DNA of 64,000 nucleotides, taken from positions 1 to 64,000 of the IMG/VR virus record IMGVR_UViG_3300038465_000158; one strand, written 5' to 3'. Within the stretch, counting starts at the first letter, position 1. Every line of letters starts with the position of its first letter. The notes under the pieces were generated by a model. The model did not search any database, had not been told where the DNA came from, and saw only the letters and a list, made by a program, of their open reading frames with translations. Source of the stretch: a virus. Positions 23,788 to 59,346 of this stretch are shown here, one piece after another. Position numbers and translations under genes: made by a program.

Positions 23788-23797
23788 CTAGGAGTTT

Positions 23798-26700
23798 CTG
23801 GCCGATTCGCTTGTACGAGGTCTGAAGACACGAGCTAATGCTCAACGTGCTGCTGCGCAAAGCGGCGGCGTAGGAGCAAACGGCCCAGCGCCAATGAACT
23901 ACGGTGCTGGAAGTGTGATGCAACAGTACAACGAGTGGAACTTCGGAATTTCCTACGGCAAAGCACTTCCACGCGCATGGGATGTCTTCGCATCTGGAGC
24001 ATTCGGTCCATTGGCGCCTCCAGTGCCAATGGGCATTGATGCTCCGCAAGACGGAGCAGACCGCCCTGAACCAAGGCGGATGCAGTATCCCATCGCCTGG
24101 AATATGCCGACTGGTCAACCAGGTAGTGAAGGTCTCAAGCTCGTCTCGTTCGCGAACCTTCGCGCGTATGCGGACATGTACTCTGTGGTTCGCGCTTGCA
24201 TCCAAGTCCGCAAGGAAGAGATTCTCGGTCTTGACTGGGACATCATACCAACGGACGGTGCATCGAGAGACATGCGAGATGACCCAGACAAGCATCAAGA
24301 CTTCCAGGACCGTCGAGACGAAGCGCTTCAGTTCTTCAAGCGACCTGACCCAAACTACCACGACTTCTCTGGCTGGATGTCGGCGCTTCTTGAAGACGTT
24401 TTCGTTGTCGATGCACTGACGCTCTACTTGCATCCGCCACGTCTCCGTAACAAGGGTCTATTCGGTTCGAACCTGGCAGCGATTGAAGTACTTGACGGTA
24501 CGACGATTCGTCCGATGCTCGACATCCGCGGCGGCACTCCTCGGCCGCCGCAAGTCGCGTATCAGCAATATCTCTACGGCATTCCGCGAGTGGACCTCAT
24601 GGACATCATCCTGGAGTCAGACATCGACCAGATGGATGACCCAGTAGAGGAATATGACGCCGACCAGATTCTCTATCTTCCATACACTCGACGGACGTGG
24701 ACTCCGTACGGATTTCCTGGCATTGAACGCGCAATCGTTCCAGTGATGACTGGTCTTCGGCGCCAGCAATTCCAGTTGGACTTCTTCAGCGAAGGTTCAA
24801 TCCCTGGCCAATTCGTCATCCCGGGTGATGACATCAGTACTCCGCAACAGATTCGTCAGTTGCAAGACACTTTGAACGCTATTGCTGGTGACCAAGCCTG
24901 GAAGCATAAGATTATCGTTCTTCCTCGTGGTTCTGACACAAAACCACAAAAGCCGCTTTCTCTTACTGATGAATTTGACTACACGGTCGTACAGATGGTT
25001 GCAATGGCGTACAACGTGATGCCGGGTGAAATTGGAATGTCTGGCGGCGGCAAATCTGCATCGGAAGCATCGAGTGCAGCTGGCGCAATGGCGAAAGAAA
25101 GTTCTGACATCAACCGACGAACGTCGTTGAAACCGATGCTTCAATGGCTTGAAAATGCGATTTTCAATCATATTCTTCAAGACATTTGTGGACAAGATGA
25201 CATGCAATGGGTTTGGGTCGGTTTGGAAGAGACAGCCGATGAAGAAACGCAAGCTAGCAACATGGAGATCCTCATTGGAACTGGTGTTCTTTCAATTGAT
25301 GAAGCTCGAGCGCAGCTCGGAATGCCGCCATGGGGACTTCCACTCACAAGTGATCCGGTCTTTGCCACAGCGACTGGACTCACGAGTCTCGGTCTCATTG
25401 CTCCAGCTGCCGCGGACGCTCAACTCGGTGCTCCAGTTGCGGACGCTGCAGCGAACGGCGGAACTCCTTTAACCGCGAGTACTCCACTTCCTGCGCAACT
25501 TCCGTCAGGCGCCAATTCTGCTCCGACGGTCATCGGCCCAGCATCCTCCCCCGCCTCAGCAGGAACGCCAGGTGCGGGTGGACGGCCAGCAGCAAGTGGC
25601 GCGAAGGCACCTTCGGTCTCCGCGCCCGCTGCGGGTTCAAGTACACCGCTCACTGCTGGAAGCAAGAAAAAGCCTAGGAAGCAGTCGAAAGCTCTTGAAA
25701 TCGCTTCGCTGAATGAACTTGATGGTCTGCGACGTGCGCTAAAGAAGCGGAGGCCGATTGACAATTGGAACTCGATGTTCCTCTCTGAAGATGTGGTCGA
25801 AAAAGTTCGCATTGTCTACAACATGACGGCAAGTGTTGAGAAGGCGATTTCTGCTGGTCGTGTCCTCGTCAAGAGCGAACAGCGAGTTCAACGTCGGGCT
25901 GACACGATTGAGGGTATCGCTTCGAATGTCTCTACCGGACTTGCTGACCTTGCGGCTCAAATCGACAATCCTGACGTTGGGATGCTTGGATTCATTGACG
26001 GTGGTACTCAAGTTCTGCAGCAGGGATACCACGCTGCATTCAACGCTGCGGCGCAAGACGCTGTTACTTCGTACAACGGCATCAACCCCATCGGACCGAA
26101 TGACTTCCGATTCCTCGCTGAGCAACGGGCTGAGAAGCAGCGAGGGTACTTGACTGGTCTTGCTCAAGACATCAAGGGTGGAACGACTCAAGCGCAGTTG
26201 AACAACCGCATCAATCTCTACGCGAGTTCTCTCGTCCCAGCTTACGAGCAGGGATACGGATTGACGGTACTTTCCAGTCCACTTCGTGGTCCGAATCCGA
26301 ATGTCGGCCCGTATGACCCGAGTGATATGGGAGACTACGGCGCTCTTAACGACTTGTACTCTGCTGATGCGACGCCCAATGACAGCGGTAATGGGATGTT
26401 CGCGCTGTCTGCTCTCGCTGCGCTAGTCGCAGGCGGGATGCTGGTTGACGACGCGATTGGCGCTGGACAACTTGGCAACAGCAGCGACGTTCCTCCGACA
26501 GATGACGGAACTGTTCCGCCAGCATACGGAATCACTTGGCACGTCAACAACGAAGACCCGTGTGAACTTTGCGCAGACCGCGACGGTCAAGTCTACACAC
26601 TGGACAGTCTACCTTGCTGGCCCGGAGATGGTGGATTCGGAGAATTCTGCGATGGAGCAGCGAATTGTCGTTGCACTCTCGAGTATGGCGATGCTGCAGG

Positions 26701-27529
26701 GACAATCACTGCAGACAATCCGTTCAGTGACATCTCTAACCAGTTCTACCCAGAACGACAAGCGCAAGAAGCGTCAGATGACCAGCGGTCAATTGATGCT
26801 CGCAATGCCGACATCGCTTCTGTCGCTGACATCAGTCCAGGCGCCGCGGACCGTATGGCCGCTCGTGATGCTCAGTTCGGCACTCCGGGTACGCGATTCG
26901 CGCCTGGTGGTAACCTGGCAGCGGCTGAAGTGCCAAGTCTTCTGAAGGCATCTGACATTGAGGACTTGGTCTACGGCTACCTCGCCAAACAATACACGAA
27001 AGATTCGATTGCTTGGGTGAAGGATGCAACATGGACGTACGATCCTGAAGTCGACGTGAGTAGCCTTGTTCTCGCGCGGCCAACACTCGAAACGAATGAC
27101 GAGAAAGTCGCTGCCATCAAGGACAAGATTGGCAACGGCGGTGGAATCAAACCACTCGTGATTGTGAAGACCCTCCAAGGCAATGAGGTAGTCGACGGTA
27201 ACCACAGGGTCAATGCTCTTCGAGAGATGGGTATTCATACTGCGGCAGCGTACGTTGGGGCCGGAAATGACCATCTGGGTCAGTATGCCGTTGCTATGCA
27301 GCATGAAGATGCACAGAAGTTGTACAAAGCACTCGACCCGTCGATGCTCACGACACTTCAAATTGGTGATTTGGTTTACGATGACGATGTCATTGTCTTC
27401 TCGACAACGCGACCCAATGCAACGGTAGTCGCTGTAGTCAAGAACGCTTTGTCAAACGAATTCACACCAGGTCAAGAGATGCTCGTCACTGACATCACAG
27501 ACAATGAGGTTATCCTGGAGATTCAGTAG
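23798..27529 (+). CDS. Portal fused to MuF-like head morphogenesis and ParB/Srx-like domains (proposed CTG start)
   Basis: Portal motifs (YG.P..E, FF.EGS.P, SIDEAR..LG.PP); C..C...DG...PGDG..C...NCRC.L; VVDGNHRV.A. Confidence 0.88.
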   Translation: MADSLVRGLKTRANAQRAAAQSGGVGANGPAPMNYGAGSVMQQYNEWNFGISYGKALPRAWDVFASGAFGPLAPPVPMGIDAPQDGADRPEPRRMQYPIAWNMPTGQPGSEGLKLVSFANLRAYADMYSVVRACIQVRKEEILGLDWDIIPTDGASRDMRDDPDKHQDFQDRRDEALQFFKRPDPNYHDFSGWMSALLEDVFVVDALTLYLHPPRLRNKGLFGSNLAAIEVLDGTTIRPMLDIRGGTPRPPQVAYQQYLYGIPRVDLMDIILESDIDQMDDPVEEYDADQILYLPYTRRTWTPYGFPGIERAIVPVMTGLRRQQFQLDFFSEGSIPGQFVIPGDDISTPQQIRQLQDTLNAIAGDQAWKHKIIVLPRGSDTKPQKPLSLTDEFDYTVVQMVAMAYNVMPGEIGMSGGGKSASEASSAAGAMAKESSDINRRTSLKPMLQWLENAIFNHILQDICGQDDMQWVWVGLEETADEETQASNMEILIGTGVLSIDEARAQLGMPPWGLPLTSDPVFATATGLTSLGLIAPAAADAQLGAPVADAAANGGTPLTASTPLPAQLPSGANSAPTVIGPASSPASAGTPGAGGRPAASGAKAPSVSAPAAGSSTPLTAGSKKKPRKQSKALEIASLNELDGLRRALKKRRPIDNWNSMFLSEDVVEKVRIVYNMTASVEKAISAGRVLVKSEQRVQRRADTIEGIASNVSTGLADLAAQIDNPDVGMLGFIDGGTQVLQQGYHAAFNAAAQDAVTSYNGINPIGPNDFRFLAEQRAEKQRGYLTGLAQDIKGGTTQAQLNNRINLYASSLVPAYEQGYGLTVLSSPLRGPNPNVGPYDPSDMGDYGALNDLYSADATPNDSGNGMFALSALAALVAGGMLVDDAIGAGQLGNSSDVPPTDDGTVPPAYGITWHVNNEDPCELCADRDGQVYTLDSLPCWPGDGGFGEFCDGAANCRCTLEYGDAAGTITADNPFSDISNQFYPERQAQEASDDQRSIDARNADIASVADISPGAADRMAARDAQFGTPGTRFAPGGNLAAAEVPSLLKASDIEDLVYGYLAKQYTKDSIAWVKDATWTYDPEVDVSSLVLARPTLETNDEKVAAIKDKIGNGGGIKPLVIVKTLQGNEVVDGNHRVNALREMGIHTAAAYVGAGNDHLGQYAVAMQHEDAQKLYKALDPSMLTTLQIGDLVYDDDVIVFSTTRPNATVVAVVKNALSNEFTPGQEMLVTDITDNEVILEIQ

Positions 27530-29685: not shown

Positions 29686-30092
29686 CCGAACTTCGTTGGT
29701 CCGCAACAGTTTCATTTGAAGACAACAGAACTCCAATTATTGGCGAGTTGGCAACCTTTGGCGAATTCAAATGTAGTGATCCAGAGATCGAAAGTCTCGT
29801 CAACTACGACATCAATTTCAAAATGTCGGTTAGTCCGATCGCGTTACTTCCACCGATTGATTCTCTTGAAGTGTCGTACGACAATCCTGCTTCTATTGCC
29901 GCATCATTTTTCTGGGCAGTTGTGAACACATGTCGTAGTGACACACCAGATTTTGTGTTTCACGGCAAAAACTACTTGCTTCCTGGCATGACGCTAGACG
30001 ATGTCGTGACCGACGGCCGTACTGACACGTTCACGGATGCGAAGTTAGTCGGGTCCAGCCAACCTCCAGTAAGCGAACTCTTCGCTGAGTAG
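29682..30092 (+). CDS. Small acidic protein, possible immunity/partner
   Basis: ATGA-coupled to the peptidase gene. Confidence 0.55.
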   Translation: MTELRWSATVSFEDNRTPIIGELATFGEFKCSDPEIESLVNYDINFKMSVSPIALLPPIDSLEVSYDNPASIAASFFWAVVNTCRSDTPDFVFHGKNYLLPGMTLDDVVTDGRTDTFTDAKLVGSSQPPVSELFAE

Positions 30093-30167
30093 CAAAAAAG
30101 AAATGTTCCATGTAGTAATATGAGTTTCTAAGTACACAATGCTTAAGGTACCCGGACATGGAGATTT

Positions 30168-32411
30168 CTGGCTCATATAGTTGATGTACCGGTCGAAGCC
30201 GGCGCCGAAGAAGTTTACTTCGGTGTGCCCATCACAAAAATGGAAGTCCAGTCCGATGGCACTGTCATCGTTGGTGGACTTTGCACCAGCGACAACCTTG
30301 ACCTCGACGACCAAATCATCGACTTGGACTTCTCGAAAAAGGGTCTCACTCTCTGGCAGAACACTTGGAAGAACGTTCGCCAAATGCACTCGACAGACTT
30401 GCCGCCTGCTGGCAATGGTCTTCTCATCGATGCCACTCGTCCTGACGGTGTCTACCTTGAGGCTCACATCATTGAGCCCGGTGCTGTTCACCTCACCAAG
30501 ACTGGTGTGTACAAAGCTTTCAGTGTCGGCGTTTCACGACCTCGAATCATTCGAGACAAAATCGCAAAGAACGGCCGAGTCATCGACGGCATCTTCTCGG
30601 AAGTCTCAATTGTGGACTTTCCAGCGAATCCAGTTTCTGCGTTCAGTATCATCAAACGCAAGAAGTCTGAGATAAATAAGATAGCAAAGACGTTGACGGC
30701 AATCGGTTCAATTGTGCAGTACCAAACAGACGAGAAGGGGCTTATGGCCAAGAGAATCAGTGGAACCGCTGCAGAAGTTACAAAGGCTGGAGACCCGGAC
30801 TGCAAAACCTGCGGAGGCAGTGGCAAGATCAAGGACGGCAACATGGATTGCCCCGATTGCGTCAACAAAACTGTCGAACCTGAAGCGACTAAGGCCGCTC
30901 CTTGCGCCGACTGTGGCGGAAGCGGTACCATGCCTGACGGTTCAAAGTGCATGAAGTGCGCAGTTGTTGAATCTGATGTCGAAAAGTCTGATGACGGTTC
31001 TGAAGTCGAGAAGAAAAAGGATGACTCTGATGATTCGGACGACGATTCGGATGATTCAGACGACTCTGATGATTCTGACGATTCTGACGATTCTGACGAC
31101 GACAGCGATGACGATTCTGATGATTCAGACGACGACGATGATTCTGATGACGACGTCAAGAAGACCGTTGACGGCGTGGCGTATGCGCTTCGTCGGGCAC
31201 ACGACGTCCTTTGTGACGCCTATTCTCCCACCGTCATTGCTGCGAGTCACCCATCGGTGGAGAAGATGGGTTACAAGGCACTTCTCGAGCCGGCAGTCAT
31301 TCGTACGTTGCTCAGTACGCTGGCCGACTCGAGCGACCCGCATCAGTTGGCTGAACTCGCTGGCGCTGTCGGCGCTGCGCAGATGCTCACCACGGTTGGT
31401 GATTCGGAAATCGCTGACGCGCACGCGACAGTGAACAAAGCATTCTCGGATGAGTATCCGACGGCGCATCCGACTCCCGGCAGCATCACACCTGGACAGT
31501 TCACGCGTTCATATCTCTCCGCAGGTCGAGTTCCTGCGATGCCGTCTGGTTCGCCTCGAATTCCTGCCGCGAACAGCGACATCGATGCTGATGACTTCAC
31601 GAGCGGTCCGATTACGGACGGTCGCGAATCTCCTTCGCCAGAGAATGGCGGAAGTCACCCGTCCTCGACGAAGACTGCGCAACAGCAAATCGCTGCTGCA
31701 ACAGCGGACACAGTCCTCAACGCGACGACTGCTCTTCACGACCACATCGCTTCAGCGTATCCGACGATTTGCTCGCTCGACCAGGGAGCTGGATTTTCTG
31801 GCGGTGGAGTCGAAAGTCTGAACACTGACGGAAGCATTCGCTCGGTTGCCGCGGCCGCAACGCCGGAACTGTCGAAGGCTGAGAAGAAGGAAAAGAAGGC
31901 TGAAAAGCGAGCCAGGAAGATTGAAAAGGCTCGTGCGCTTCTCGCTGAACTCGAGAACGACAAGGATGACGATGATGTCATCGAAGCCACTCCAGACCCT
32001 TCAGTTCTCAAGGCCGTCACGACGACTGAAGGCGAAATTCTTCTCGACACCGATGCTCTCAATGCAATCATTGAAGGAATCGTTGTCAAGCACCTTGGTG
32101 ACAAGTTCCAGGACATCGACAAGGTTGTCGGTGAAGTACAGGCGGACATCAAGAAAATCGGTAGCGAACCGGACCCTGCCAAGGCCCCAATGAGGGGTGG
32201 CGTTGGATTCGAGCGAGCAATTGAAAAGCAAGCCGTGGCCACAGAGGCGGATAGACTCCGCGAGGTCGCGAATGCAGACGTCAAGGACCAAATCGAGTAC
32301 CTCACGGAACTCAAGAAGTCAGGCAATGCAGAACTTCGTCTGCGTGCTGAAAACGAACTGTCCAAGTTGCTCGAACGTGCGGCGCTCGCGCCTGCATCAG
32401 TAAGCGGCTAG
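30168..32411 (+). CDS. HK97-type prohead protease / scaffold fusion (proposed CTG start)
   Basis: LDLDDQIID, RQMH, GVYKAFSVG, EVSIVD.PANP; CxxCGGSG fingers; Asp/Ser tract; coiled-coil C-terminus. Confidence 0.88.
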   Translation: MAHIVDVPVEAGAEEVYFGVPITKMEVQSDGTVIVGGLCTSDNLDLDDQIIDLDFSKKGLTLWQNTWKNVRQMHSTDLPPAGNGLLIDATRPDGVYLEAHIIEPGAVHLTKTGVYKAFSVGVSRPRIIRDKIAKNGRVIDGIFSEVSIVDFPANPVSAFSIIKRKKSEINKIAKTLTAIGSIVQYQTDEKGLMAKRISGTAAEVTKAGDPDCKTCGGSGKIKDGNMDCPDCVNKTVEPEATKAAPCADCGGSGTMPDGSKCMKCAVVESDVEKSDDGSEVEKKKDDSDDSDDDSDDSDDSDDSDDSDDSDDDSDDDSDDSDDDDDSDDDVKKTVDGVAYALRRAHDVLCDAYSPTVIAASHPSVEKMGYKALLEPAVIRTLLSTLADSSDPHQLAELAGAVGAAQMLTTVGDSEIADAHATVNKAFSDEYPTAHPTPGSITPGQFTRSYLSAGRVPAMPSGSPRIPAANSDIDADDFTSGPITDGRESPSPENGGSHPSSTKTAQQQIAAATADTVLNATTALHDHIASAYPTICSLDQGAGFSGGGVESLNTDGSIRSVAAAATPELSKAEKKEKKAEKRARKIEKARALLAELENDKDDDDVIEATPDPSVLKAVTTTEGEILLDTDALNAIIEGIVVKHLGDKFQDIDKVVGEVQADIKKIGSEPDPAKAPMRGGVGFERAIEKQAVATEADRLREVANADVKDQIEYLTELKKSGNAELRLRAENELSKLLERAALAPASVSG
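31020..31155 (+). repeat. Degenerate 9-bp repeat encoding a (DDS)n acidic tract
   Basis: GA(T/C)GA(T/C)TC(N) repeats. Confidence 0.85.
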
Positions 32412-32436
32412 ACCCTACAAGAAACTCAGGAGGTTT

Positions 32437-34251
32437 CTGGAAACAACTATCAACGAGACCATTGAAGATGCAGGTCGGTACTCCGGCGCATCTGACATGA
32501 TTTCGGGCCGTATGCCGGACCTTGTAAAGGGCGCTGGTTTTGCCAAGATTGGTGGCAATGAGCCACTACGTGACGATGGCGAAATCTTCAAGCGTTCTTT
32601 CGAGGCTGAACGTTCGCTGCGCGCTTCTATCAAGAAGTCGTACACGAACCCGGAATCGGTCCGCAAGAGCATCAACCCGGCGTTCACTTCTCAGTTTGGT
32701 CTTTTCCTCACTGAAGGTGCCAACCCCGGCTACAGCGCCCTCGTCGGCGAACTCAACTCCTTGCTGTCTTCCGAACTTGGAAAGAACATCACGTTGTCGA
32801 GTCCGTTGTCGTCCGGCTTTGTTCCGTTCGACCTCGTTGCGCCGTCGCGACTCATCTACCCGGTGTACTCGCCTCTCCGCAACAAGGTTCCGCGTGTCGC
32901 TGGTCAGGGTACTTCGCACCGTGCGAAGCTGGTCACCGGCGTTTCCGGTTCGCAGACTGGTGTTGCGACCCAACGTATCTCGATTTCTGAGATTCCGAAC
33001 GGTCAAAGCATCAACGGCAACTGGCCGCTGAACCTTCCGGCTGCTGGCGCTCAGCAAGCCGTCGACATGAACATTCCTTACAAGTTCTTCGGTCTGAGTG
33101 AGTCGCTGTCTTGGCTCGCGCAGTTTGCCGGTCAGGGCTTCGAGGACATCTCTGCACTCGCCAACTTGGTGTTGCTGCAGGAGTTCATGCTCGGCGAGGA
33201 GTACACCTTGCTGTCGGGTACGAGCGCCGCTTTGACGGCGCCTGCCACACCGACGCTTGCCAAGCGAACTGCAACTTCGGGTGAGGTCGCGCTTTCCGGC
33301 CTCGGTTCGAATGACCTGTTCGTTCTTGTCACCGCTCTCAACTACTTTGGTGAGACCACGGTGACCGGTACGGCTGCGTTGGTCGCCTCTGCCAATGGTG
33401 ACGTCGTTGACGTTACCATTGCTCCAGTCAACGGCGCGTACAACTACAACATCTACATCGGTCAAGCTGCTTCAGTGCAGCCCGCGAACACGGCCTTCTG
33501 GCTGATGGCCGCCGGTGTCGGTGCCACGACGTTTACGCTTCAGGGTGCAGTTCCGACTTCTGGAACCAACCCTCCCGTTGCTGACACGGGCACCTCTTCG
33601 GCCAACGACTACGAGGGCTGGCTCTCGATTGTTGACGGTCACGCAGGTGGTAAGGCTGGTGGCGCAAGCGTTTACCCAACCGGTTTCACTGGTTCGTACA
33701 TCAACAAGTCCGTTGGCGCGACCCTTTCTCACACTGTTCTCTTCAACGCGTTGTCTGCGATGTGGAACGGTAAGGGAACTGGTAACTCGTCGACGACTGG
33801 TGGATTCCGTGCGGACCCAGCGGAATTGGTCGTGGAAGGTTCGGACAGCTCACGTCTGGCTGAGGAAGTCATCGCAGCCGGTGGAGCAACGAACTACCGC
33901 TTGTTCCTGACTCAGAATGACATCGGTAGCATCACGACCGGTGGCGCAGTTTCTGAGATTCAGAACCCCATCACCCGCAGCATCGTCCGCATCGTCGTTC
34001 ACCCCTGGTTGACTCAGGGCACGGCGTTCCTGAACTCCTACACGCTCCCGATGTCTTGGTCGAATGTGACCAACGTCTGGGAGAACGTGATGGTTCAGGA
34101 CTACCTGTCCATCAACTGGCCGGTGATTGACGCGTCGTTCCGTTACAGCATCTACATGTACGGAGCGCTCGTCAACTACGCCCCGCAGTACAACGGCGTT
34201 CTTCAGGGTCTTCAGCAGACTGTTGCTGGTACCACGGGGACGAACTCCTAG
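32437..34251 (+). CDS. Major capsid protein (proposed CTG start)
   Basis: Position after scaffold, strong codon bias, FDL.AP.R.IYP..SPLRN.+PR..G.G, followed by terminator. Confidence 0.85.
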   Translation: METTINETIEDAGRYSGASDMISGRMPDLVKGAGFAKIGGNEPLRDDGEIFKRSFEAERSLRASIKKSYTNPESVRKSINPAFTSQFGLFLTEGANPGYSALVGELNSLLSSELGKNITLSSPLSSGFVPFDLVAPSRLIYPVYSPLRNKVPRVAGQGTSHRAKLVTGVSGSQTGVATQRISISEIPNGQSINGNWPLNLPAAGAQQAVDMNIPYKFFGLSESLSWLAQFAGQGFEDISALANLVLLQEFMLGEEYTLLSGTSAALTAPATPTLAKRTATSGEVALSGLGSNDLFVLVTALNYFGETTVTGTAALVASANGDVVDVTIAPVNGAYNYNIYIGQAASVQPANTAFWLMAAGVGATTFTLQGAVPTSGTNPPVADTGTSSANDYEGWLSIVDGHAGGKAGGASVYPTGFTGSYINKSVGATLSHTVLFNALSAMWNGKGTGNSSTTGGFRADPAELVVEGSDSSRLAEEVIAAGGATNYRLFLTQNDIGSITTGGAVSEIQNPITRSIVRIVVHPWLTQGTAFLNSYTLPMSWSNVTNVWENVMVQDYLSINWPVIDASFRYSIYMYGALVNYAPQYNGVLQGLQQTVAGTTGTNS

Positions 34252-34269
34252 TACCCCCTAGGAAACAAT

Positions 34270-34305
34270 GGAATGGCGCTGACGAAAGTCAGCGCCATTT
34301 CCTTT
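34270..34305 (+). terminator. Intrinsic terminator after capsid gene
   Basis: GAATGGCGCTGAC-GAAA-GTCAGCGCCATTT then CCTTT. Confidence 0.85.
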
Positions 34306-34318
34306 GTATAATTGCACT

Positions 34319-34603
34319 ATGAGTTCCATCACTGTCCCACCGGGTTGCATGGGAGTCGAACTTCCTAACGGCAAAAAGTTGGACGCGACGAGAAGCGGTA
34401 CTGTCGTATTGGACAGTCCTGCAGAGGAACGAGCAGCGATGAAGTCGTCTCTAGCGACGGCAGGAGTCATCACTCGCCAAACGCTTGGCTTCAGCCACAT
34501 TAAAGAAGGGACCGCAATTTGCACCAAATGTCCTTTTACTGGCTGGTCATGGCAAAAGGTCTGCCCTAAATGCGGCGGAAAAATGACAACGGAGACACAA
34601 TGA
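34319..34603 (+). CDS. Zn-ribbon protein, probably leaderless
   Basis: TATAAT at 34307-34312 ends 6 nt before ATG 34319; CTKC...CPKCG. Confidence 0.7.
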   Translation: MSSITVPPGCMGVELPNGKKLDATRSGTVVLDSPAEERAAMKSSLATAGVITRQTLGFSHIKEGTAICTKCPFTGWSWQKVCPKCGGKMTTETQ

Positions 34604-34923
34604 CGGTATACGGACAGAGTGACGTAAACGAAGTGACAGTTGGTGGCGCTGGCCATTCGCATGTCAGGGCGAAGAACGAAGCTCACATGAAGGTCGATTG
34701 CGCGGTTTGTGAACCCAAACTTCGCGAGATGGGTTGGGTCGGTGACCCACGGCAAATTCCTCTCACGTACGATGAAAGACTCGATGCTGAAAACGCGGAA
34801 CGCGAGATGAATCAGTACACGCGAGAAGAAGTTGTAGCACGAGCACGCGAAGCTGCTGCGGCAGTTCGTTCACCAGGACGTCCGGCTAGGGGCAAGGGCG
34901 CGCAAGGTGGGGCAGCCGGGTAA
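34600..34923 (+). CDS. Hypothetical protein
   Basis: GGAG SD, ATGA overlap. Confidence 0.7.
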   Translation: MTVYGQSDVNEVTVGGAGHSHVRAKNEAHMKVDCAVCEPKLREMGWVGDPRQIPLTYDERLDAENAEREMNQYTREEVVARAREAAAAVRSPGRPARGKGAQGGAAG

Positions 34924-35119
34924 GAAGTGCACGGCTTGTTCCAAGCCGGGCAGATTTGTTACAGGATACTGCGGTTCCTGCAACGCTGCATGTTGTGAAA
35001 AGCATTTGAAATGGTCGACTGAAGAAGCAGAGTGGCGTTGTCCACGGTGCTTACGAGATGAGAAGACGCGAAAGAAGCAAGTGAGCACAGGGATAGGTTT
35101 ATCGCCACACCTTACGTAA
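34907..35119 (+). CDS. Small Cys-rich Zn-finger protein
   Basis: CxxC, CxxC, CCxxH, CxxC. Confidence 0.55.
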   Translation: MGQPGKKCTACSKPGRFVTGYCGSCNAACCEKHLKWSTEEAEWRCPRCLRDEKTRKKQVSTGIGLSPHLT

Positions 35120-36015
35120 CTCCAGAGATTCTCATCAATGCTCCAACTGGAATCTCCTGGAGCACAATCCCTGATTTCGATTCGGACCCTGATGCGCAAC
35201 TAGCAGAACAAACAAATATGTGTTGGCGTGCATCGATGTGGATTGACGGTTATTGCAACCAACCGTTGAGGTCGACAATTGATACTGAGGAATTTCTTGC
35301 TCCGAACTATCGAGTGACAATCGACAATAACGGTCTCGTTCGAGTACTTGTCTCGCGGTGGCCAGTCACGCAAATCATCGGAGCGCAGTACACTTCGTCA
35401 CTCTCTGCTGGGCCGACTTGGTCGCCTATTCCTCTCAATGCAATGTACATAGAAGAGGGACTGACAATCTCTGGTGGCATCTCAATCGAGTCCGCGGCTG
35501 GTTCTGCCGCAATTGACATCACTCCTGGTTACATTTCGTGGTTCAATGGGCGTCGCGGCATTCGACTTCAACTCACGTACGTCAACGGTTGGAGTCATGC
35601 TGGTATCGTCAACTCGGTTGACATCGGAGCGACGTCGTTACTTGTCGATGACTGCACTGGCATGACGTCTGCTGACGCTGGTCGAGGCATGTGGATTTAT
35701 GACGGCAACGCAACTGAATTCGTTGCTGTCACCGCAGTGAGTGAAACATCTGGGCCTGGAACTGCGACACTCGCTTCTCCAGGAACTGTCTATCCGCACA
35801 ATGGAAATGCATCTCAGCCAATTGTCATCTCTGCTCTCCCCGCTTCAATTCAGCAGGCAGCAATTCTCCATTGCTCGATGCAAGCACTTGTTCGTGGAGC
35901 TACAGCGACGACCGTTCAGAATCAACCTGGTTCGACGCAAAACACTGGTGACCCTGGTACAGGAATTCTCAAAGACATCAAAGACATTTTGATGCCGTAC
36001 CGTCGAGTCATCTAG
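35101..36015 (+). CDS. Head-tail adaptor/connector (proposed ATC start)
   Basis: PYVTP...APTG..W N-terminus; AS..ID.YC.Q, Y..GW, LPA.I.QA, L.PYRRV. Confidence 0.75.
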   Translation: MATPYVTPEILINAPTGISWSTIPDFDSDPDAQLAEQTNMCWRASMWIDGYCNQPLRSTIDTEEFLAPNYRVTIDNNGLVRVLVSRWPVTQIIGAQYTSSLSAGPTWSPIPLNAMYIEEGLTISGGISIESAAGSAAIDITPGYISWFNGRRGIRLQLTYVNGWSHAGIVNSVDIGATSLLVDDCTGMTSADAGRGMWIYDGNATEFVAVTAVSETSGPGTATLASPGTVYPHNGNASQPIVISALPASIQQAAILHCSMQALVRGATATTVQNQPGSTQNTGDPGTGILKDIKDILMPYRRVI

Positions 36016-36958: not shown

Positions 36959-36975
36959 TGAGGTAATATCTACAC

Positions 36976-37260: not shown

Positions 37261-37273
37261 CTAAGAGAGGTTT

Positions 37274-38248
37274 CTGCCCACAACCATCGTTGAACAGTAC
37301 GGTTCGCTATCTGCAGTAGGTGTAGCAACGGAGGCCACGTTTGGCACTCCAGTCGTTCCTACATCATTTGTCCCGTTCACCGATGTCACCCTGGAAAGGG
37401 ATCCTGGTGTCTTCTTTCCTCAAATCATCATGGGTGTTCGAGACGTCAATGTCTTCTCCCTTCGCGGTGAGTTTAAGAACGCAGGCGACGTCAGTGCTCC
37501 GTTCTTTCCAACCAATGGTCTGGAAATCTTGGCCGCGGCTATCGGCACAGATGTTGTCACTGGAACGAGTCCGCATTACCACCACACGTTCAGTCCAGCG
37601 AACGTTCTCAATTCGCTGACGGTTGAGAAAAACCTCGGTGGTTACCAGTCGCTCCAGTTCACTGGAACACGAGTCGGTAAGTACAGCATCAAGGCAACGA
37701 CTGGCGACACGGAAACTGAGTTCACTGCTTCGTTCATCGGCAAGGATGCCAACGTCCTCGATACTCCTTCTTCGCCAATTACAATCGTCAACGAGAATCC
37801 ATTCGTTTTTGCTGAGGCCTCGATTACGTTATTCGGCAACCTCACGGCGCAAGTCACTGCAATCAACATCGACATCGATAACGGTTTGAAGCCGACGTAT
37901 ACGTTCAACCAGTCGCATGACCTTGAATTTCTGTCGCCTCTCACAAGGCACATCACTGGTTCGTTGACCGTGGTCTTTGACAGTTTGGATGATACCGACT
38001 GGGGCTACTACACCAAGATGATTGACGGTACGTACGGTGCTCTTGTCGCAGATTGGACGCATGCTGATACTGGTGCTGAGTTGACCGTCACATTGCCAAA
38101 GATTTTCCTGACGAAGTACGCCGATGACGTGAAGATGGACAGTATCATTATGTCGACACTGGACTTTGAAGCGGTGTACGACTTGACTGCATCTCCGCCT
38201 CACTCGATTTCGGTCCTCGTCATCAACGCAATTGCAACTGCTTACTAG
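37274..38248 (+). CDS. Major tail tube protein (proposed CTG start)
   Basis: G..S.VG.A.E.TFG.PV.P..F.P N-terminus upstream of ATG 37430; Y.HTF, SLT.EK; precedes chaperone and TMP. Confidence 0.85.
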   Translation: MPTTIVEQYGSLSAVGVATEATFGTPVVPTSFVPFTDVTLERDPGVFFPQIIMGVRDVNVFSLRGEFKNAGDVSAPFFPTNGLEILAAAIGTDVVTGTSPHYHHTFSPANVLNSLTVEKNLGGYQSLQFTGTRVGKYSIKATTGDTETEFTASFIGKDANVLDTPSSPITIVNENPFVFAEASITLFGNLTAQVTAINIDIDNGLKPTYTFNQSHDLEFLSPLTRHITGSLTVVFDSLDDTDWGYYTKMIDGTYGALVADWTHADTGAELTVTLPKIFLTKYADDVKMDSIIMSTLDFEAVYDLTASPPHSISVLVINAIATAY

Positions 38249-38280: not shown

Positions 38281-38745
38281 ATGGCAGGAAAAGGTTTCTT
38301 AGCACTATTTAACACGCCTGACCGCATTGAGGTCACGGATGACGGTGCTTTTTGGATTGACATCAAAACATCACTTACCGCGGATGACTACGAGCATGCT
38401 CAGCGAGTTCTTTTCGGCAAGATGGCAATGAAAGGCGGCGACCTTTCAGCGACGCCAGACACAATTTCATATCAGCATGAACTCGTGTTCCGTGCGGTTG
38501 TTGACTGGAACTTGACCGACGAGGACGGCGACTTGCTTCCGCTCGAACCAGAAAAGGCCAAGCATGATTCAATCCGTCGAATCCCACAATCGATTTTCAT
38601 CGACTTGTACAACCGAGTCAATAAAGCGTCTTCGGCGCGCTCAAGTGGTGATGAGCTCCAGTTTCGTGATGACGGTTCAACAGAGTCTCCGGGGGACGAA
38701 AGTTCAACTGGAGAAGTACCCGTCGCTCCAGAAGTTTCTGATTGA
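38281..38745 (+). CDS. Tail assembly chaperone
   Basis: DWNLTDEDG..LP; between tube and TMP. Confidence 0.8.
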   Translation: MAGKGFLALFNTPDRIEVTDDGAFWIDIKTSLTADDYEHAQRVLFGKMAMKGGDLSATPDTISYQHELVFRAVVDWNLTDEDGDLLPLEPEKAKHDSIRRIPQSIFIDLYNRVNKASSARSSGDELQFRDDGSTESPGDESSTGEVPVAPEVSD

Positions 38746-38902
38746 GAGCGCTCTCTACGAGCACGTCGGCTTAAACTTTGAGACTCTCAAATCTAGGCCT
38801 TTCACAGAGGTTCTTGACTACGTCACAATTGCTGATCTGATCGCGAAAGAACGAATCTATCAACAGAAGAAGCATGCTGCTGAGGCGGCGCGGAAGAAAT
38901 AA
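38663..38902 (+). CDS. Tail chaperone frameshift extension (+1 frame)
   Basis: Overlapping ORF ending at the TMP start; TTT CGT at 38662-38667. Confidence 0.6.
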   Translation, partial: FVMTVQQSLRGTKVQLEKYPSLQKFLIESALYEHVGLNFETLKSRPFTEVLDYVTIADLIAKERIYQQKKHAAEAARKK

Positions 38903-45746: not shown

Positions 45747-45755
45747 GAAGGAATT

Positions 45756-49681: not shown

Positions 49682-49693
49682 AATGGATTTCAA

Positions 49694-53410: not shown

Positions 53411-53919
53411 GCAGAAGCAATATCCCAAAAACTACTCAACGTGGTCTTTTTGTGATGTCCACTGGCAATGACAATGAGGTTGCGCTTGTCCCTGGCAGTC
53501 CAGTTGCTGGCGGAGCGACAATAGCAGTGCCAATTACGTGGGTGCATCCACCAAAATTCGGTGCAGGTCCGTATTCGAACTTTGGACCAACACCAATTTT
53601 CATGCCAGTTGACCCAACAACGAATGTGCAACTTATTGGCGGAATGTTTTGGGCATTAGAGACACTTAGCAGCGGCATTGGAATTCTTGGAACTGAATAC
53701 AATCTCAACATTGATAAAAATGGTAGCGCAATAGCAGGTATGACAAATATTTACGTCACGTATTCAACATCTCCAGTTTTTGCATCAATCGCTCCAATTG
53801 ATACTGCAAATGATGATCAATTTGATATTGAACTAATTGACATGAATGCGCCTGGCACCAACCTGTACGGTGCAACAGTTTCTTGCACTCTTTTCTTCGC
53901 TGTGACAGCATTGACGTAA
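53407..53919 (+). CDS. Tail beta-sandwich protein, triplet copy 3
   Basis: Same motifs. Confidence 0.7.
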   Translation: MSRSNIPKTTQRGLFVMSTGNDNEVALVPGSPVAGGATIAVPITWVHPPKFGAGPYSNFGPTPIFMPVDPTTNVQLIGGMFWALETLSSGIGILGTEYNLNIDKNGSAIAGMTNIYVTYSTSPVFASIAPIDTANDDQFDIELIDMNAPGTNLYGATVSCTLFFAVTALT

Positions 53920-54668
53920 TGGAAATTATCGACACCTTTCATTTCAACAATGAAATTGAACTTCTGGATTTGAGAGTTCACATTCTAGAAGACATCGTCG
54001 ATAAATTCATTGTCAAAGAGGCAGATGAAACGTTCACGAGAAACCCTAAGAAGTGTTTGGCGGCTCTTTACGATCATCCAAAGGTATTCACACATAAAGT
54101 CGAATTACCGGATGGCACACCGTGGGAGAGAGACACGTATCAGAAAACAGCAAAAGTCAATCTCGATGAGTTCGGCATTTCGTCTGACGCTCTCATCATG
54201 ATGAGCGATGTCGATGAGATGCCGAGTGTCGAAGCAATTCATCGAATGACAACGGAACTTAAATATGGAATGCTCTGCAGATTTATGCAGCGACCATTTC
54301 AACGGTTTCTCAATGTCGAACAAATTGGGCAACCGTGGAGTGGCACACGAGTTTGTCTCGCTTCCACATATCATTTGCTCAATGACGGTAATTTCTCGCA
54401 TCATATGCCGGCGTATTCAATCGGTAAGGGCGGTTGGCATTGGTCATTTCTCGGCGATACTGAAATGATTATTGACAAGATCAAGTCATATGGCCACACT
54501 CAATTCAATACACCAGAGACAATTCGACTTATCGACGAACGAGTAGCGAACAGTCAAGATGTTCTCGGTCGCACATTCCGATTTCGTACAGTTGACATTG
54601 ATGAAACCTACCCAGTGTATATACGTGAAAACCAGGATAAATTGCGCCACTTGATCAAGTTAAAATGA
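53919..54668 (+). CDS. Glycosyltransferase, GT17-like
   Basis: ID.F.FNNE.ELL.LR..L...VD.F.+.EA..TF, SDVDE, GGWH.S.+G....I..KI.SY.H. Confidence 0.85.
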   Translation: MEIIDTFHFNNEIELLDLRVHILEDIVDKFIVKEADETFTRNPKKCLAALYDHPKVFTHKVELPDGTPWERDTYQKTAKVNLDEFGISSDALIMMSDVDEMPSVEAIHRMTTELKYGMLCRFMQRPFQRFLNVEQIGQPWSGTRVCLASTYHLLNDGNFSHHMPAYSIGKGGWHWSFLGDTEMIIDKIKSYGHTQFNTPETIRLIDERVANSQDVLGRTFRFRTVDIDETYPVYIRENQDKLRHLIKLK

Positions 54669-54689
54669 TTCCATGACCTGAGGAGGTTT

Positions 54690-56096
54690 ATAGCGACATT
54701 CGATCGGAAGACGGCAGGTGTAGGTGCATTAAATTGGGCAAAACTTCAGAACGGCAAACCGTACATCTGGGGAGGCACCGGACCAGAAGGTTTTGATTGC
54801 TCTGGTCTTACGGAAGAGGCATATCTTCATGTAAATGTCCAACTTCCTCGCACCACGTACGAACAATGCAAATTGTACGTTCTTCCGAAGGACGCAAAGC
54901 TCGAACCTGGAGATTTGCTCTTCATTGCGGGCTCTGACGGCACGGTGGCTGAACCTGGCCATGTAATGATTTTCATCGAAGACGGTTGGGTCTTCCAAGC
55001 GCCGTTTACCGGCGAAGATGTTGGTAAGTACGCGTACGACACGACTCAGTACGACGTCGCAACACGACCAGCTCTTGCGCTGCCTCTACCAGTTGTTCCA
55101 CCAACGGTTGAGCAATTGGCCGCGGCAAAAATGGTGCTTCTTCCAAATCAAGCTGCCGCATTTCTCGCACGGCGAAATGGATGGACTGTTCGCTACTGGA
55201 TTCATCAACAGTTCCTTGCGGCGCCTCCAGGATTTCCAACTACTGGTCTGGCGGAATATGCGAACATTCACTATGAGAGTCCTCGTCCGGCACGGCAAGC
55301 TGGGAAGCGCGGAGTTCGCATCAATGAACTTCATCTTCCGGACCTCGAACTTCACAAATTCAAATCGACTGCACCACTCCCGCCATTACCAACAAGCGGC
55401 GATGTCCGTTGCAGTCTCGAAAACATCGGGATGCTCGGCAATGATGAGTTTGGCGACTGTGGTCCAGCCGCTACCGAGCACATTCGCATGATGCAAGCAG
55501 CAATTTCGACTATTAACGGTCAAACGACGTGGGTTCCTGGGTTCCGAATTCCTCACACCGCGTACACTGAAGGCCTCTATTTTGCGTACGGTCGAGCGAT
55601 GGGAGAAGGCGGTCTTCATCCCGACCAGGGAGTTGCAAATGCAACTTGGTTGCTTTGGCTGTACCAGCACAAAATCATCGAAGGATTTGCTGAAGTCAAC
55701 GTCAATGCATCGTCTGGTCTCATCAATGGCGACAATGCTGCTGCTCGAGCTCATCGTGCGATGATTGAGTTCCAAGGATGTCTCGTTGCCGTCAGTCTCA
55801 CCGATGACGCTGAACAACTGTTCCAGGAAGGTCTTCCTTGGACGACGGCAAACGGCGAAACTCCAGATCCGCAAGAAGGTCATGACATTGCTCTCGGTGC
55901 GTACAGTCCGACAGGAGATACGTTCGGGACTTGGGGCGCATGGGAAGAGTCAACTATTGACTGGGACAACGAATGCATCGGCGAATGCTGGGTCATCGTC
56001 ACCAAGGAACTTGCTGAGCGAAGTGGTTACAATTTCGCTGCTATGACTGCTGTGCTGGATACTCTCGTGGACGCGCATCTTCCGGCTGCGGCGTAA
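54690..56096 (+). CDS. Endolysin: NlpC/P60 domain plus papain-like C-terminal domain (proposed ATA start)
   Basis: GKPYIWGG.GP.GFDCSGL...LPRTT..Q...PGDL.F...GHV; MLGND..GDC...GH.I...Y...TWG. Confidence 0.88.
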   Translation: MATFDRKTAGVGALNWAKLQNGKPYIWGGTGPEGFDCSGLTEEAYLHVNVQLPRTTYEQCKLYVLPKDAKLEPGDLLFIAGSDGTVAEPGHVMIFIEDGWVFQAPFTGEDVGKYAYDTTQYDVATRPALALPLPVVPPTVEQLAAAKMVLLPNQAAAFLARRNGWTVRYWIHQQFLAAPPGFPTTGLAEYANIHYESPRPARQAGKRGVRINELHLPDLELHKFKSTAPLPPLPTSGDVRCSLENIGMLGNDEFGDCGPAATEHIRMMQAAISTINGQTTWVPGFRIPHTAYTEGLYFAYGRAMGEGGLHPDQGVANATWLLWLYQHKIIEGFAEVNVNASSGLINGDNAAARAHRAMIEFQGCLVAVSLTDDAEQLFQEGLPWTTANGETPDPQEGHDIALGAYSPTGDTFGTWGAWEESTIDWDNECIGECWVIVTKELAERSGYNFAAMTAVLDTLVDAHLPAAA

Positions 56097-56105
56097 GGCG
56101 CATCC

Positions 56106-56420
56106 ATGCTCTCAGTTGTCGGACATAATCCTTTCACCAATTGGATTACGTATCTTTCAGCCGTCGTCGGTCTCCTTCTCGGCGTCGGTACACTTTACAT
56201 TCGTGTCATTTACCCAAGAGCTCTAGCGCACAAAGAGCACGAGGCTGAACGTGAAGGCATGCGGAAAGAACTTGATGCGAAGGACGAATTTCATAACGGA
56301 TTTCTAGATGGTGTAGACGAAGTGCCGGGTATGACACTTGCTGTGCCGCCTGCCGCAGTACGAATCAAAGCGCTTGAAGACATGATGCAAACCCTACTCA
56401 AACCCGGACAGGAGATTTAG
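56106..56420 (+). CDS. Lysis-cassette membrane protein
   Basis: One TM helix; FLDG...PG...PPA..R+..LE. Confidence 0.65.
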   Translation: MLSVVGHNPFTNWITYLSAVVGLLLGVGTLYIRVIYPRALAHKEHEAEREGMRKELDAKDEFHNGFLDGVDEVPGMTLAVPPAAVRIKALEDMMQTLLKPGQEI

Positions 56421-56914
56421 TGCTTTTGCATTTAGCGCTTCAAAACAGCAAGATACCAGTTTTCAACTCGGTCCATTTCTGGCAAGGTGTAGTCGGAACA
56501 GTCGCTGTGTTAACTTTCATTGCAGCGTTCCTCGCCAAGCCAATTAAAAGGTGGTACGATAAGAGAAGTCTCGAACGGCAAAGACATGAACTGTTCCTAG
56601 ACGGCATGCCTGGTGTAGAAGGATTCACAAAGCCTATTCCACCGGCGTATGAGCGAATGGGGAATCTCGAAACTGGAATGACAAAAGCGAATTCAACACT
56701 CGAGAATCACGGTGAAATTCTCGAGACTATCGTCAACACACTCATTGGTGTCGCAAGAGCTATTGAAGATGTTGACAGCAAAGTCACGCCGAACGGTGGA
56801 GATACGAACAATCCTGGCGACGTGTTGCAGCGACTCGCAAAAGCAACTGGCGTCTGGGTTGAAGAAAAGAAGATCCCAATAACACGTATCAAAAATGAAA
56901 ACAAAAAATCGTGA
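56420..56914 (+). CDS. Lysis-cassette membrane protein (paralog of previous)
   Basis: One TM helix; same motif; V.PNGG. Confidence 0.65.
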   Translation: MLLHLALQNSKIPVFNSVHFWQGVVGTVAVLTFIAAFLAKPIKRWYDKRSLERQRHELFLDGMPGVEGFTKPIPPAYERMGNLETGMTKANSTLENHGEILETIVNTLIGVARAIEDVDSKVTPNGGDTNNPGDVLQRLAKATGVWVEEKKIPITRIKNENKKS

Positions 56915-57507
56915 GAAAGCAAGCTGTAGTCCCTGAAGCGACCGTTGCAATTTATGACTTTGGCGAGCATTGTGAAACAACTGAAGCCGGGGACATGATT
57001 CTTGTCAAGCATGCGCATATCTCCGCGAAATTGATTCGCTTCGGACAACGAATCAAATATTGGATGCTTCGTGTCATCATGCGGCGAAAGGAGTACGACA
57101 AAGCGTACTGCGAAACGAATCATGCGATGATTGTCGTCGTTGGCGGGAAGGACGCTCTCGTCTCCCAGATGCAACCGTCTGGCGGCGGAGTCATCGTTGG
57201 TCTTCGTCGCTATGCTGATTTGCGATACGCCGTCGTACACCCGACAAAAGCGAATGTTGAACAGCGAGCAAATGCGGCAGCATTCGGTAGATGGGCAGTT
57301 GGTAACAAATATGGCTGGCTCTCAATCGCAACTATGATTGTCGGTGTGTTCATCCCATTTTTCGAAGTCGCGATGAGTATCGGCAACAGCATGGTTTGTT
57401 CGACTGCGTCAACCCTCGCGCACCGCTGCATGGGGTTGATTCCTGACGAGGCAGACACTGGAGTGTTTCCTGCAGATGATGCTCGCTACTACGATGTAAG
57501 GTTGTAA
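56911..57507 (+). CDS. Permuted papain-like NlpC/P60 (YiiX/YaeF-like) hydrolase
   Basis: GD.IL, HA.IV before G.KY..., late +CS catalytic motif. Confidence 0.7.
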   Translation: MRKQAVVPEATVAIYDFGEHCETTEAGDMILVKHAHISAKLIRFGQRIKYWMLRVIMRRKEYDKAYCETNHAMIVVVGGKDALVSQMQPSGGGVIVGLRRYADLRYAVVHPTKANVEQRANAAAFGRWAVGNKYGWLSIATMIVGVFIPFFEVAMSIGNSMVCSTASTLAHRCMGLIPDEADTGVFPADDARYYDVRL

Positions 57508-57510
57508 TCG

Positions 57511-58152
57511 ATGTCACCACTCACTTACGAAGGCGAGACTGCAGTCGCCTATCCAGCAGTATTCGGTGGAGTCGCTGCTCCAGCAATATACTACGTCGGG
57601 CTGCAGACAAGTGAGATCTATCCTGGAGCAAGTCAAAGCATCGCGAATGGCGCAGTAATTATCCCAACAGCATTTGACACATTTAGCGAACCAGGAACTG
57701 GCACTAATAGAATTTTTGTCTGTTCAACAGCAGGGACAACCGATGTAGCTGAGCCAAATTGGGACGCTGTCGTATCTGGTGGAACGATACTTGACGGCAG
57801 TGTCATCTGGCAAGATGTTGCGTCAACAACATCACCGTTTTGGCTGAGTTCTACGCCAGTCTTTAACGAAGTTTCTGCATCAGAATATGCACGAGTTGAG
57901 TATGACAACAATCAAACAAATTTTCCTTCGCCAAGCGGTTCAAACCCGACCGTAGGCACAAATGCGAATATCATCGGGTTTGCGACATCATATGTTGCAT
58001 GGGGTACTCTTGCCGCAGTCACATTTCATGACGCGTACAGCGGCGGCAATGTAATCTCATTTGCGTACCTTTCAAAGCATTTGACAATTAGCGGCGCTGG
58101 AATCACACCAAGTATCCCAGCGCTAACGGGACTTACGCTTACTGTCTCATAA
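57511..58152 (+). CDS. Minor tail protein
   Basis: YARV...TN...I.F...WG.+...DA..GGN; inserted AGTT..EP.W...DG.V.W module. Confidence 0.65.
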   Translation: MSPLTYEGETAVAYPAVFGGVAAPAIYYVGLQTSEIYPGASQSIANGAVIIPTAFDTFSEPGTGTNRIFVCSTAGTTDVAEPNWDAVVSGGTILDGSVIWQDVASTTSPFWLSSTPVFNEVSASEYARVEYDNNQTNFPSPSGSNPTVGTNANIIGFATSYVAWGTLAAVTFHDAYSGGNVISFAYLSKHLTISGAGITPSIPALTGLTLTVS

Positions 58153-58215
58153 AAATACAGTGCTTCGGATGTTAATATTCAAAGTAATGGTTGTTGTCCA
58201 CCGCATAGGAGATTT

Positions 58216-59346
58216 ATTTTCGTAGAACTCGGTAACAAGTCCGCAGCCTTCCGGGATGAGAAGACTGGAGAAATGGTTTCGCATCTTGACCGGCTTGGTG
58301 GAGCACCTACGGTCACGTATGCCACTGTTGGCCATGTGAATGCTGGACTCCATGACAGTGGCATTGAAATTCCGAAGTTCAAGACACACTTGTACGAATC
58401 TGTCATTATGAACAAGGGCGTCACGAACTTTGACGGTGCTGGCGTTACTGAAGGAGCTGGCGCTGCCGCCCTTTGCGACTTGGTGCACCCAGACGGTTCG
58501 TGGATGGCGAACTCAACGGACGCACGTCCGACGTGGGTATGGTCCGACGATCCAGACTTCGGTAAGTTGCTTTCTGCTTACTACGAAGTTCCTTACGGTC
58601 GACCAGATGACTTGTTCTTAACGCATCACACGCAGTTTGGCCCTCCTGGGTCGACTCCTCCTTCAGTTTCGCCAGCAGTCGCTCTTATCAAGGACATCAC
58701 GAATCTCTTGGTCAACACTGGCCGAGACATGTGGGCCCAGGGCCAGGGTCGTTCGCAAGTAGTTCTTGCGCAGCAAACAGCAACTGCGGCTGGTACAACG
58801 TCGATTACTGGAACGGGCACACCGTTCACCGCATCTGCGTACATCGGAATGATCGTGGTGGACAACTCGACTGGAGTTTGGGGAAACATCCAGTCGAACA
58901 CAACTTCAGTCTTGACTGTCGACCGTTGGTACAACCCCGCCACTCCTGGTGGTGCTGCTGCCACCACACCTGGCGCAACTGACAAGTTTACGATTGTTCA
59001 GGCTGTCTCACCGGCGCAGTTCATGGGAATCACCGCGAACGCGACAGCGGCAGGAGCCACAGACACTCAGTTGCCATCAGAAATCGTTACTGGTGGCGGT
59101 GGACTTGTTCGAGCCGTCACCACGTACGCGCACTCGGCCGGCACGAACACGTACACGTCGGCCAACACATTTACTGCGAACGGTTCTGACTCACTTCCAG
59201 TCACCATTGCGAAGATGGGTCTGTTCAACTCAATGGTGGTCGCTTCGACGATCAATATGTGGTTTGAGACGTTGCTGAATGCAACAGCGACTCTTACCAT
59301 TTCCGGCGACGCACTCACGATCACGGACACCGTCACAGGGTCTTAG
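58216..59346 (+). CDS. Virion structural protein, tail collar-like (proposed ATT start; alternative ATG 58273)
   Basis: DT.L..E+..GL.RA..Y.H..G, K.GLFN, GD.L..T; Thr/Ala-rich. Confidence 0.7.
   Translation: MFVELGNKSAAFRDEKTGEMVSHLDRLGGAPTVTYATVGHVNAGLHDSGIEIPKFKTHLYESVIMNKGVTNFDGAGVTEGAGAAALCDLVHPDGSWMANSTDARPTWVWSDDPDFGKLLSAYYEVPYGRPDDLFLTHHTQFGPPGSTPPSVSPAVALIKDITNLLVNTGRDMWAQGQGRSQVVLAQQTATAAGTTSITGTGTPFTASAYIGMIVVDNSTGVWGNIQSNTTSVLTVDRWYNPATPGGAAATTPGATDKFTIVQAVSPAQFMGITANATAAGATDTQLPSEIVTGGGGLVRAVTTYAHSAGTNTYTSANTFTANGSDSLPVTIAKMGLFNSMVVASTINMWFETLLNATATLTISGDALTITDTVTGS

Follow-up and report, generated by a model that had tools for sequence, protein, structure and literature searches.

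In Escherichia coli, infC, the gene for initiation factor 3 (IF3), and pcnB start at AUU, and infC is autoregulated through IF3 discrimination. NCBI translation table 11 lists AUH (H being A, C or U) and CUG as rare starts. Recoding is also known at the other end of the gene, and stop-codon-recoding phages carry suppressor transfer RNAs (tRNAs) or release-factor genes. Here we describe seven late genes of an uncultured phage that begin at CTG, ATC, ATA or ATT, which we call weak codons, each placed after a Shine-Dalgarno (SD)-like run and an invariant TTT. The genes lie in the window, the first 64 kb (positions 1 to 64,000) of IMG/VR record IMGVR_UViG_3300038465_000158. A non-canonical start in a phage structural gene has been described for Corndog, a mycobacteriophage of Cluster O, where peptides of the tape-measure protein map upstream of any canonical start; the gene has ACG where its relatives have ATG and follows an HNH insertion, and bypass was not excluded (PMC4351075). 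The base directly 5' of the start codon has been studied in E. coli, where pairing of U(-1) with A37 of the initiator tRNA (tRNAfMet) raises translation, as demonstrated by compensatory mutation of position 37 (Hollerer and Jeschek 2023, PMC10018350). The same paper cites chloroplast work on a U(-1) effect at a weak non-AUG start, and also Esposito et al. 2003. A literature search found no paper that describes weak starts used systematically, behind a fixed upstream triplet, in the late genes of phages.

The original prediction proposed that the seven genes start with an SD-like run, TTT and a weak codon, and every site is present as described. An in-frame stop lies 2-21 codons 5' of each weak start, and the first ATG, GTG or TTG is 19-61 codons 3' of it. 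The genes and their start regions are as follows.

23790 to 27529, plus strand: portal gene, 1243 residues; AGGAG at 23790-23794, TTT at 23795-23797, CTG at 23798; in-frame TAG 2 codons upstream, first canonical start 32 codons downstream
30160 to 32411, plus strand: gene for a protease-like head-module protein, 747 residues; GGAGA-TTT-CTG, start at 30168; first canonical start a GTG 19 codons downstream
32429 to 34251, plus strand: major-capsid-family gene, 604 residues; AGGAGG-TTT-CTG, start at 32437; first ATG 20 codons downstream (codon 21), within a conserved RYSGASDM block
35094 to 36015, plus strand: 'adaptor' gene (head-tail region protein), 304 residues; GGGATAGG (ATAGG)-TTT-ATC, start at 35101; first ATG 39 codons downstream
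37265 to 38248, plus strand: tail tube gene, 324 residues; GAGAGG-TTT-CTG, start at 37274; first ATG 52 codons downstream (codon 53)
54682 to 56096, plus strand: NlpC/P60 endolysin-like gene, 468 residues; AGGAGG-TTT-ATA, start at 54690; first canonical codon a TTG 61 codons downstream (codon 62)
58208 to 59346, plus strand: gene of unknown function, 376 residues; AGGAGA-TTT-ATT, start at 58216; first ATG 19 codons downstream

The names given to these genes in the original prediction held in part. Portal, tube and endolysin are backed by Pfam (residues 129-508 of the portal protein match PF04860 Phage_portal), whereas 'protease', 'adaptor' and 'structural gene' were not confirmed by sequence searches of Pfam, PHROGs and PDB; in PDB the protease-like, adaptor and 58216 proteins found no match. 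The 747-residue protein has no Pfam or PDB name, and its single PHROG match is of unknown function; it is probably a prohead protease/scaffold fusion. The capsid label has two sources, gene order and the name of the Atlas cluster (major capsid protein). AlphaFold gave models too poor for fold searches both for the capsid protein (predicted local distance difference test score, pLDDT, of 45) and for the protease-like protein, of which the N-terminal domain was modelled (pLDDT of 34). The neighbour of the 58216 gene, at 59350, matches tail-fibre PHROGs. The adaptor has a weak SD, GGGATAGG, and its ATC start at 35101 is overlapped by 19 nt by a small Cys-rich, zinc-ribbon-like open reading frame (ORF; 34907-35119), to which it may be translationally coupled.

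The context of the weak starts is strict. We searched for GGAG, GAGG, AGGA or TAGG, followed by zero or one nucleotide, TTT and then CTG or ATH. This motif has 8 matches on the plus strand, compared to an expectation of 1.4 +/- 1.4 per strand. A long ORF begins at 7 of these matches; the eighth, at 12384, opens 13 codons. TTT is the -1 triplet at all seven weak starts. Of 114 canonical starts that were called roughly (82 ATG, 24 GTG and 8 TTG), no more than two have it (Fisher p = 5.7e-10). T is the least frequent base at -1 of the canonical starts (13/114), and the enrichment of U at -1 and -2 over other starts of the same genome is what enhancement by U(-1):A37 calls for. The GGAG-type core is located 2-4 nt 5' of the weak starts. 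Canonical strong-SD genes share this distance (for example, AGGAGGACA-ATG at 11048), and the spacing of the weak starts is therefore ordinary for the genome. Weak starts mark late genes and are absent from early genes and from coupled genes, and the late genes at 34600, 36976, 38281 and 45756 use ATG, both as had been claimed. Three further candidates for weak starts lacked support and were set aside: an ATC at 21131 (before terminase), another ATC at 73834 and the copy of the motif at 12384.

The stretches upstream of the first canonical starts behave as coding sequence. In the tube gene the extension is, as predicted, the N-terminus of the family: position 1 of the PF18906 Phage_tube_2 profile falls on residue 10 of the extended protein, and distant homologues of 317-327 residues span 98-99% of it. 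Over the 52 codons of the tube extension, nucleotide differences lie mainly at third positions, with counts at codon positions 1:2:3 of 10:3:29, 12:4:31 and 10:5:30 against three relatives. The closest public tube calls are shortened (272-274 residues), as is the call for the phage itself (272 residues compared to 324), and the public Atlas capsid record begins at residue 21, read as M. The proposal that the endolysin extension carries the catalytic motif was likewise borne out. Positions 1-91 of the NlpC/P60 profile fall on residues 22-116, mostly before codon 62, and a protein started at the first canonical codon would lose the NlpC/P60 part with the catalytic Cys motif. Upstream sequence that is conserved as coding and closed by an in-frame stop is the pattern expected of near-cognate starts.

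We compared the start regions with those of relatives from an IMG/VR clade of 40-55% G+C (GC), one member of which, G001, is complete at 88 kb and has terminal repeats. The homologue alignment called for in the original prediction places the weak codon at the canonical start codon of orthologues for five genes, the codons found there among relatives being CTG, TTG, ATC, ATA, ATG or GTG; the endolysin-like and 58216 genes have one close relative each, and both keep a weak codon. In portal relatives the aligned codon reads TTT-TTG, TTG, GTG or ATG, and conservation of the portal N-terminus, L(A/S)..S..(R/K)GLK.RAN, begins at this codon. The protease-like gene has GGAG(A/G)-TTT-CTG at eight loci (six distinct sequences), TTT-TTG at one (L009) and TCT-GTG at another (L017), and the protein alignment begins exactly at residue 1, (L/M)AHI. 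Of 79 capsid-family loci, all those of low GC start at a weak codon preceded by TTT; the low-GC relatives show TTT-CTG (four distinct sequences), TTT-ATC and TTT-TTG. The high-GC capsid relatives have mostly ATG (L012, L013) or GTG (L016, L020), and members of 60-70% GC with a start placed by script have ATG, GTG or, once, TTG, except for two with ATA. Relatives of the adaptor have GTG or ATG before (A/T)TPY(V/I) wherever the aligned start is readable, and never with TTT. In tube relatives the start reads TTT-CTG at three loci and TTT-TTG at four loci that share one sequence, and is otherwise ATG or GTG. The relative of the endolysin-like gene (L041) keeps AGGAGG-TTT-ATA; the four larger clade genomes contain no homologue of this gene. 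In the relative of the 58216 gene (L054) the start region reads AGGAGA-TTT-ATA, with a conserved N-terminus, I(F/L)VELGNK. The weak codons thus interchange (CTG, ATC and TTG in capsid, ATT and ATA in the 58216 gene, CTG and TTG in portal and tube), while TTT stays constant.

The same context recurs in four other low-GC clade genomes, mainly in front of the genes for capsid, tube and protease-like protein. In five clade genomes (G000-G004) we considered ORFs of at least 100 codons with an SD-backed weak codon at least 17 codons before the next ATG or GTG. TTT is at -1 in most of these ORFs, including every capsid and tube gene and 4/5 protease-like genes. In G001 a 1498-residue virion protein, encoded on the reverse strand at 59604-64100 (L059-L063), starts TAGGAG-TTT-CTG; the homologous gene in the window is coupled and starts at GTG. 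The G001 protein carries a KYSADQPRDSHGRFA motif.

Since the weak codons are orthologous to canonical start codons, they are the initiation sites, and since independent assemblies carry different weak codons at the same site, an error in the consensus is ruled out. The alternative that no initiation event is involved, the sites arising instead from assembly or base-calling errors (perhaps through modified DNA), from RNA editing, or from a frameshift or bypass, is hardly credible: the codons are found again in assemblies made independently from many samples, the weak codon varying at a given site, and the SD spacing suits initiation. Fusion by frameshift or bypass was rejected because the upstream gene and the target frame both stop before each site, and a hop would be needed at seven places. 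We regard the weak starts as genuine translation start sites, confirmed at the level of sequence comparison. The comparison argues for an SD-TTT-weak codon design that was inherited, and apparently selected, in a lower-GC clade of Actinomycetota phages. Selection is suggested because the exchanges CTG to ATC (capsid) and GTG to ATC (adaptor) need at least two changes and would most simply pass through ATG, yet these lineages left ATG.

We favour, with a probability of roughly 0.7, the explanation that near-cognate starts with a strong SD and compensation by UUU form a clade-selected design on independently initiated late genes. The seven genes would be translated from CUG, AUC, AUA and AUU, each after a GGAG-type SD core and UUU, and the design would mark independently initiated late genes such as portal, protease-like, capsid, tube and endolysin-like. 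Most likely, the initiator tRNA binds an imperfect codon more strongly because of the U tract. The anticodon loop of the bacterial initiator tRNA is CUCAUAA, and U(-1) and U(-2) would pair with A37 and A38 beside the CAU anticodon. UUAUH would then form four contiguous pairs, and UUCUG two pairs on each side of a first-position mismatch. The first residue would presumably be formylmethionine. The design may serve to tune translation, or to make it dependent on initiation fidelity.

Another account of the same comparison is compensated neutral drift, in which the strong SD and the U tract make the identity of the start codon nearly irrelevant and there is no regulatory role. Exchanges of CTG with TTG and of ATT with ATA are frequent among close relatives, and a weak codon with TTT alternates with a strong codon and another triplet, as would be expected under stabilising selection on total strength. 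The Corndog tape-measure protein is made from an ACG start or by ribosome bypass without visible loss of expression (PMC4351075). However, neutrality predicts that ATG and GTG should also be found after TTT, and none is found in the low-GC clade for these genes. In the genes for capsid, tube and protease-like protein the design is also nearly fixed across about 30% protein divergence, and the adaptor of the window gained both TTT and ATC, whereas its relatives keep GTG or ATG where the aligned start is readable. For these reasons we consider drift rather unlikely and retain the selected, UUU-compensated design.

The host phylum was read as Actinomycetota from two WhiB-family genes of the phage.

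92757 to 92966 of the genome, outside the window, minus strand: WhiB-family gene
94086 to 94229 of the genome, outside the window, minus strand: WhiB-family gene

Used as a query against bacteria, the phage WhiB sequence has 34-42% identity over most of its length (at most 50% over short partial matches) to assorted Actinomycetota. As a host-side control we sampled 81 genomes of one Actinomycetota class, with up to 34 loci read per gene. The infC start is ATA in 20, ATC in 10 and CTG in 1 of 34 loci (L187-L220), and automated infC calls in the sampled metagenome-assembled genomes are likely wrong. The infC loci usually read AGGAGTGA-N5-ATA-GCA. At -1 they carry GCC, GTC, CGG, CAC or a similar triplet and in no case TTT, with the SD mostly at a distance of about 9 nt; this infC-like context is not that of the phage sites. 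As neither the -1 base nor the SD distance of the phage context (UUU at -1, spacer of 2-4 nt) matches infC, this context looks built to boost initiation and not to keep it repressible. The start of rpsJ is ATG or GTG in 30/30 sampled loci, and 400 kb of one 53%-GC genome of the sampled class contain no SD-TTT-weak start heading a long ORF. In hosts of the sampled class the design is thus absent from an abundant protein.

The host data also bear on the idea, advanced in the original prediction, of a fidelity switch: virion and lysis proteins would be kept low until start-codon discrimination falls, through a lower ratio of IF3 to ribosomes, modification of IF3 or a phage factor, and would turn on late in the manner of infC derepression. 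Discrimination of the IF3 type is probably active in the host phylum, because infC starts at ATA or ATC in 30/34 sampled genomes (with one further CTG). Weak starts are limited to late genes in G000 and G001, where early and coupled genes have ATG, GTG or TTG, and the avoidance of ATG and GTG after TTT in the clade, although ATG is the simplest intermediate, suggests selection for the weak codon itself. On the other hand, about half of the independently initiated late genes start at ATG, and the -1 base and SD distance are unlike infC and booster-like. The phage offers no IF3_C or S21 homologue, extra tRNA or Pfam-named translation factor that could act as the switch. A six-frame search of the 96.7-kb genome for IF3 (PF00707) and bS21 (PF01165) found nothing at E <= 1; IF1 and S1 were outside this search. 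Pfam searches with 50 further proteins (30 early, 10 beyond the window and 10 late) named hardly any of them and identified no translation factor, and there was no Pfam match to an alarmone synthetase domain. We therefore regard the switch as unlikely. A more specific form, in which the SD-UUU-CUG/AUH signal of the clade is read efficiently only under relaxed start-codon proofreading, gating late translation by initiation fidelity, seems to us distinctly unlikely; if true, it would be the start-codon counterpart of stop-codon recoding.

The strictness of the motif could also point to a private decoding device, an initiator-like tRNA or RNA-binding protein of the phage that reads SD-TTT-NNN. 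The sole tRNA gene found by ARAGORN in the 96,685 bp is a tRNA-Asp (GTC), so that no initiator-type tRNA with a matching anticodon was found, and the four different codons are beyond the reach of one altered anticodon. Such a device is very improbable, with the reservation that a protein factor could conceivably be encoded among the early proteins, most of which have no family.

Several observations weigh against the UUU-compensated design that we prefer. TTT is also found before canonical starts (GGGA-TTT-ATG at 17836, for example), and the context is not perfectly kept: two relatives have ATT-CTG, not TTT-CTG, in the protease-like gene, the capsid genes of the high-GC relatives L015 and L017 start at ATA after CAT or TAT, and that of the high-GC relative L090 has GGAGG-TTT-GTG. 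The host reading goes no finer than the phylum, and the presence of weak codons on the most abundant virion proteins is left unexplained. Finally, the U tract of the capsid gene could act through RNA structure, given a complementary A tract upstream. In the capsid start region (32416-32441) it is complementary to an A-rich run just 5' of the SD (AGAAAC/GTTTCT), and the capsid relatives L065-L073 show AAAACT/AGTTTT or GAAAC/GTTTC complementarity, the register of which shifts between phages. RNAalifold found no consensus hairpin in the capsid start regions, and local folds of the seven start regions have no shared structure. Scans of the late region for sigma-70-type promoters and for terminators were at chance level, except for one strong terminator 3' of the capsid gene, and did not link the weak starts to the starts of transcription units. 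In this region (34270-34321) the intrinsic terminator, with its 14-bp stem, is directly followed by TATAAT and, after 6 nt, by the ATG at 34319, a layout that points to leaderless transcription of a small zinc-finger-like gene.

The complete record is 96,685 bp in length and is rated complete by CheckV. Nearly all genes are on the plus strand, in the order early block (unnamed genes), terminase, head/tail/lysis block (about 23.4-66 kb) and DNA metabolism. A blastn search with 6 kb against 50,697 phage records gave no match. The early block includes a serine recombinase gene (17143-17757; Pfam Resolvase, E = 9e-39) in a genome that is otherwise lytic-looking. Early genes have a leader motif of their own, (G)ACAAAGGA(C/T)..., immediately 5' of ATG or GTG, found in the window at 9375-9393, 12505-12528, 12950-12972, 14338-14358 and 15222-15242, and in the genome at 80620-80641 and 81990-82011; an extended -10 element (TGTTATAAT) is located 5' of it at 12488-12497. 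With this shared early motif, the style of the start region visibly differs between early and late genes. The region 38281-38902 has the layout of a tail-assembly chaperone, with a 154-residue gene overlapped by a 112-residue ORF in another frame, the end of which coincides with the ATG of a 1049-residue tape-measure-like gene (38902). Because these overlapping chaperone-type ORFs fill the apparent gap before 38902, no weak start is needed there.

The practical consequence is that public calls cut these proteins short, and catalogues of uncultured actinophages probably misplace the starts of many late genes. The strict link between weak codon and UUU would back the extended pairing of the initiator tRNA with natural evidence from several genes and several genomes; so far, the evidence for it has come mainly from reporter libraries. 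Weak codons on the proteins that are needed most pose the question of whether start-codon fidelity is used to time or to balance late translation.

Set beside the known systems, the phage genes resemble infC and pcnB of E. coli in being SD-led with an AUH or CUG start. These are single regulatory genes of low abundance, whereas the phage has seven such genes, among them those of the capsid family, the tube and the portal. The UUU and the 2-4-nt spacer of the phage contrast with actinobacterial infC, where the -1 base is mostly C and the SD lies at a distance of about 9 nt. The U directly 5' of the start codon is shared with the U(-1):A37 systems of tRNAfMet, although that pairing was shown with reporters and tRNA mutants and in the phage clade it is predicted from an invariant natural UUU. 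Corndog is likewise an actinobacteriophage with a non-canonical start in a structural gene, but there a single gene is concerned, the codon is ACG and no shared context motif was reported. As in stop-codon recoding, late genes bear a signal that is handled poorly by standard decoding, with the difference that no matching decoding device was found in this phage. This case is set apart by how many genes are concerned, by a UUU that does not vary and by conservation throughout the clade.

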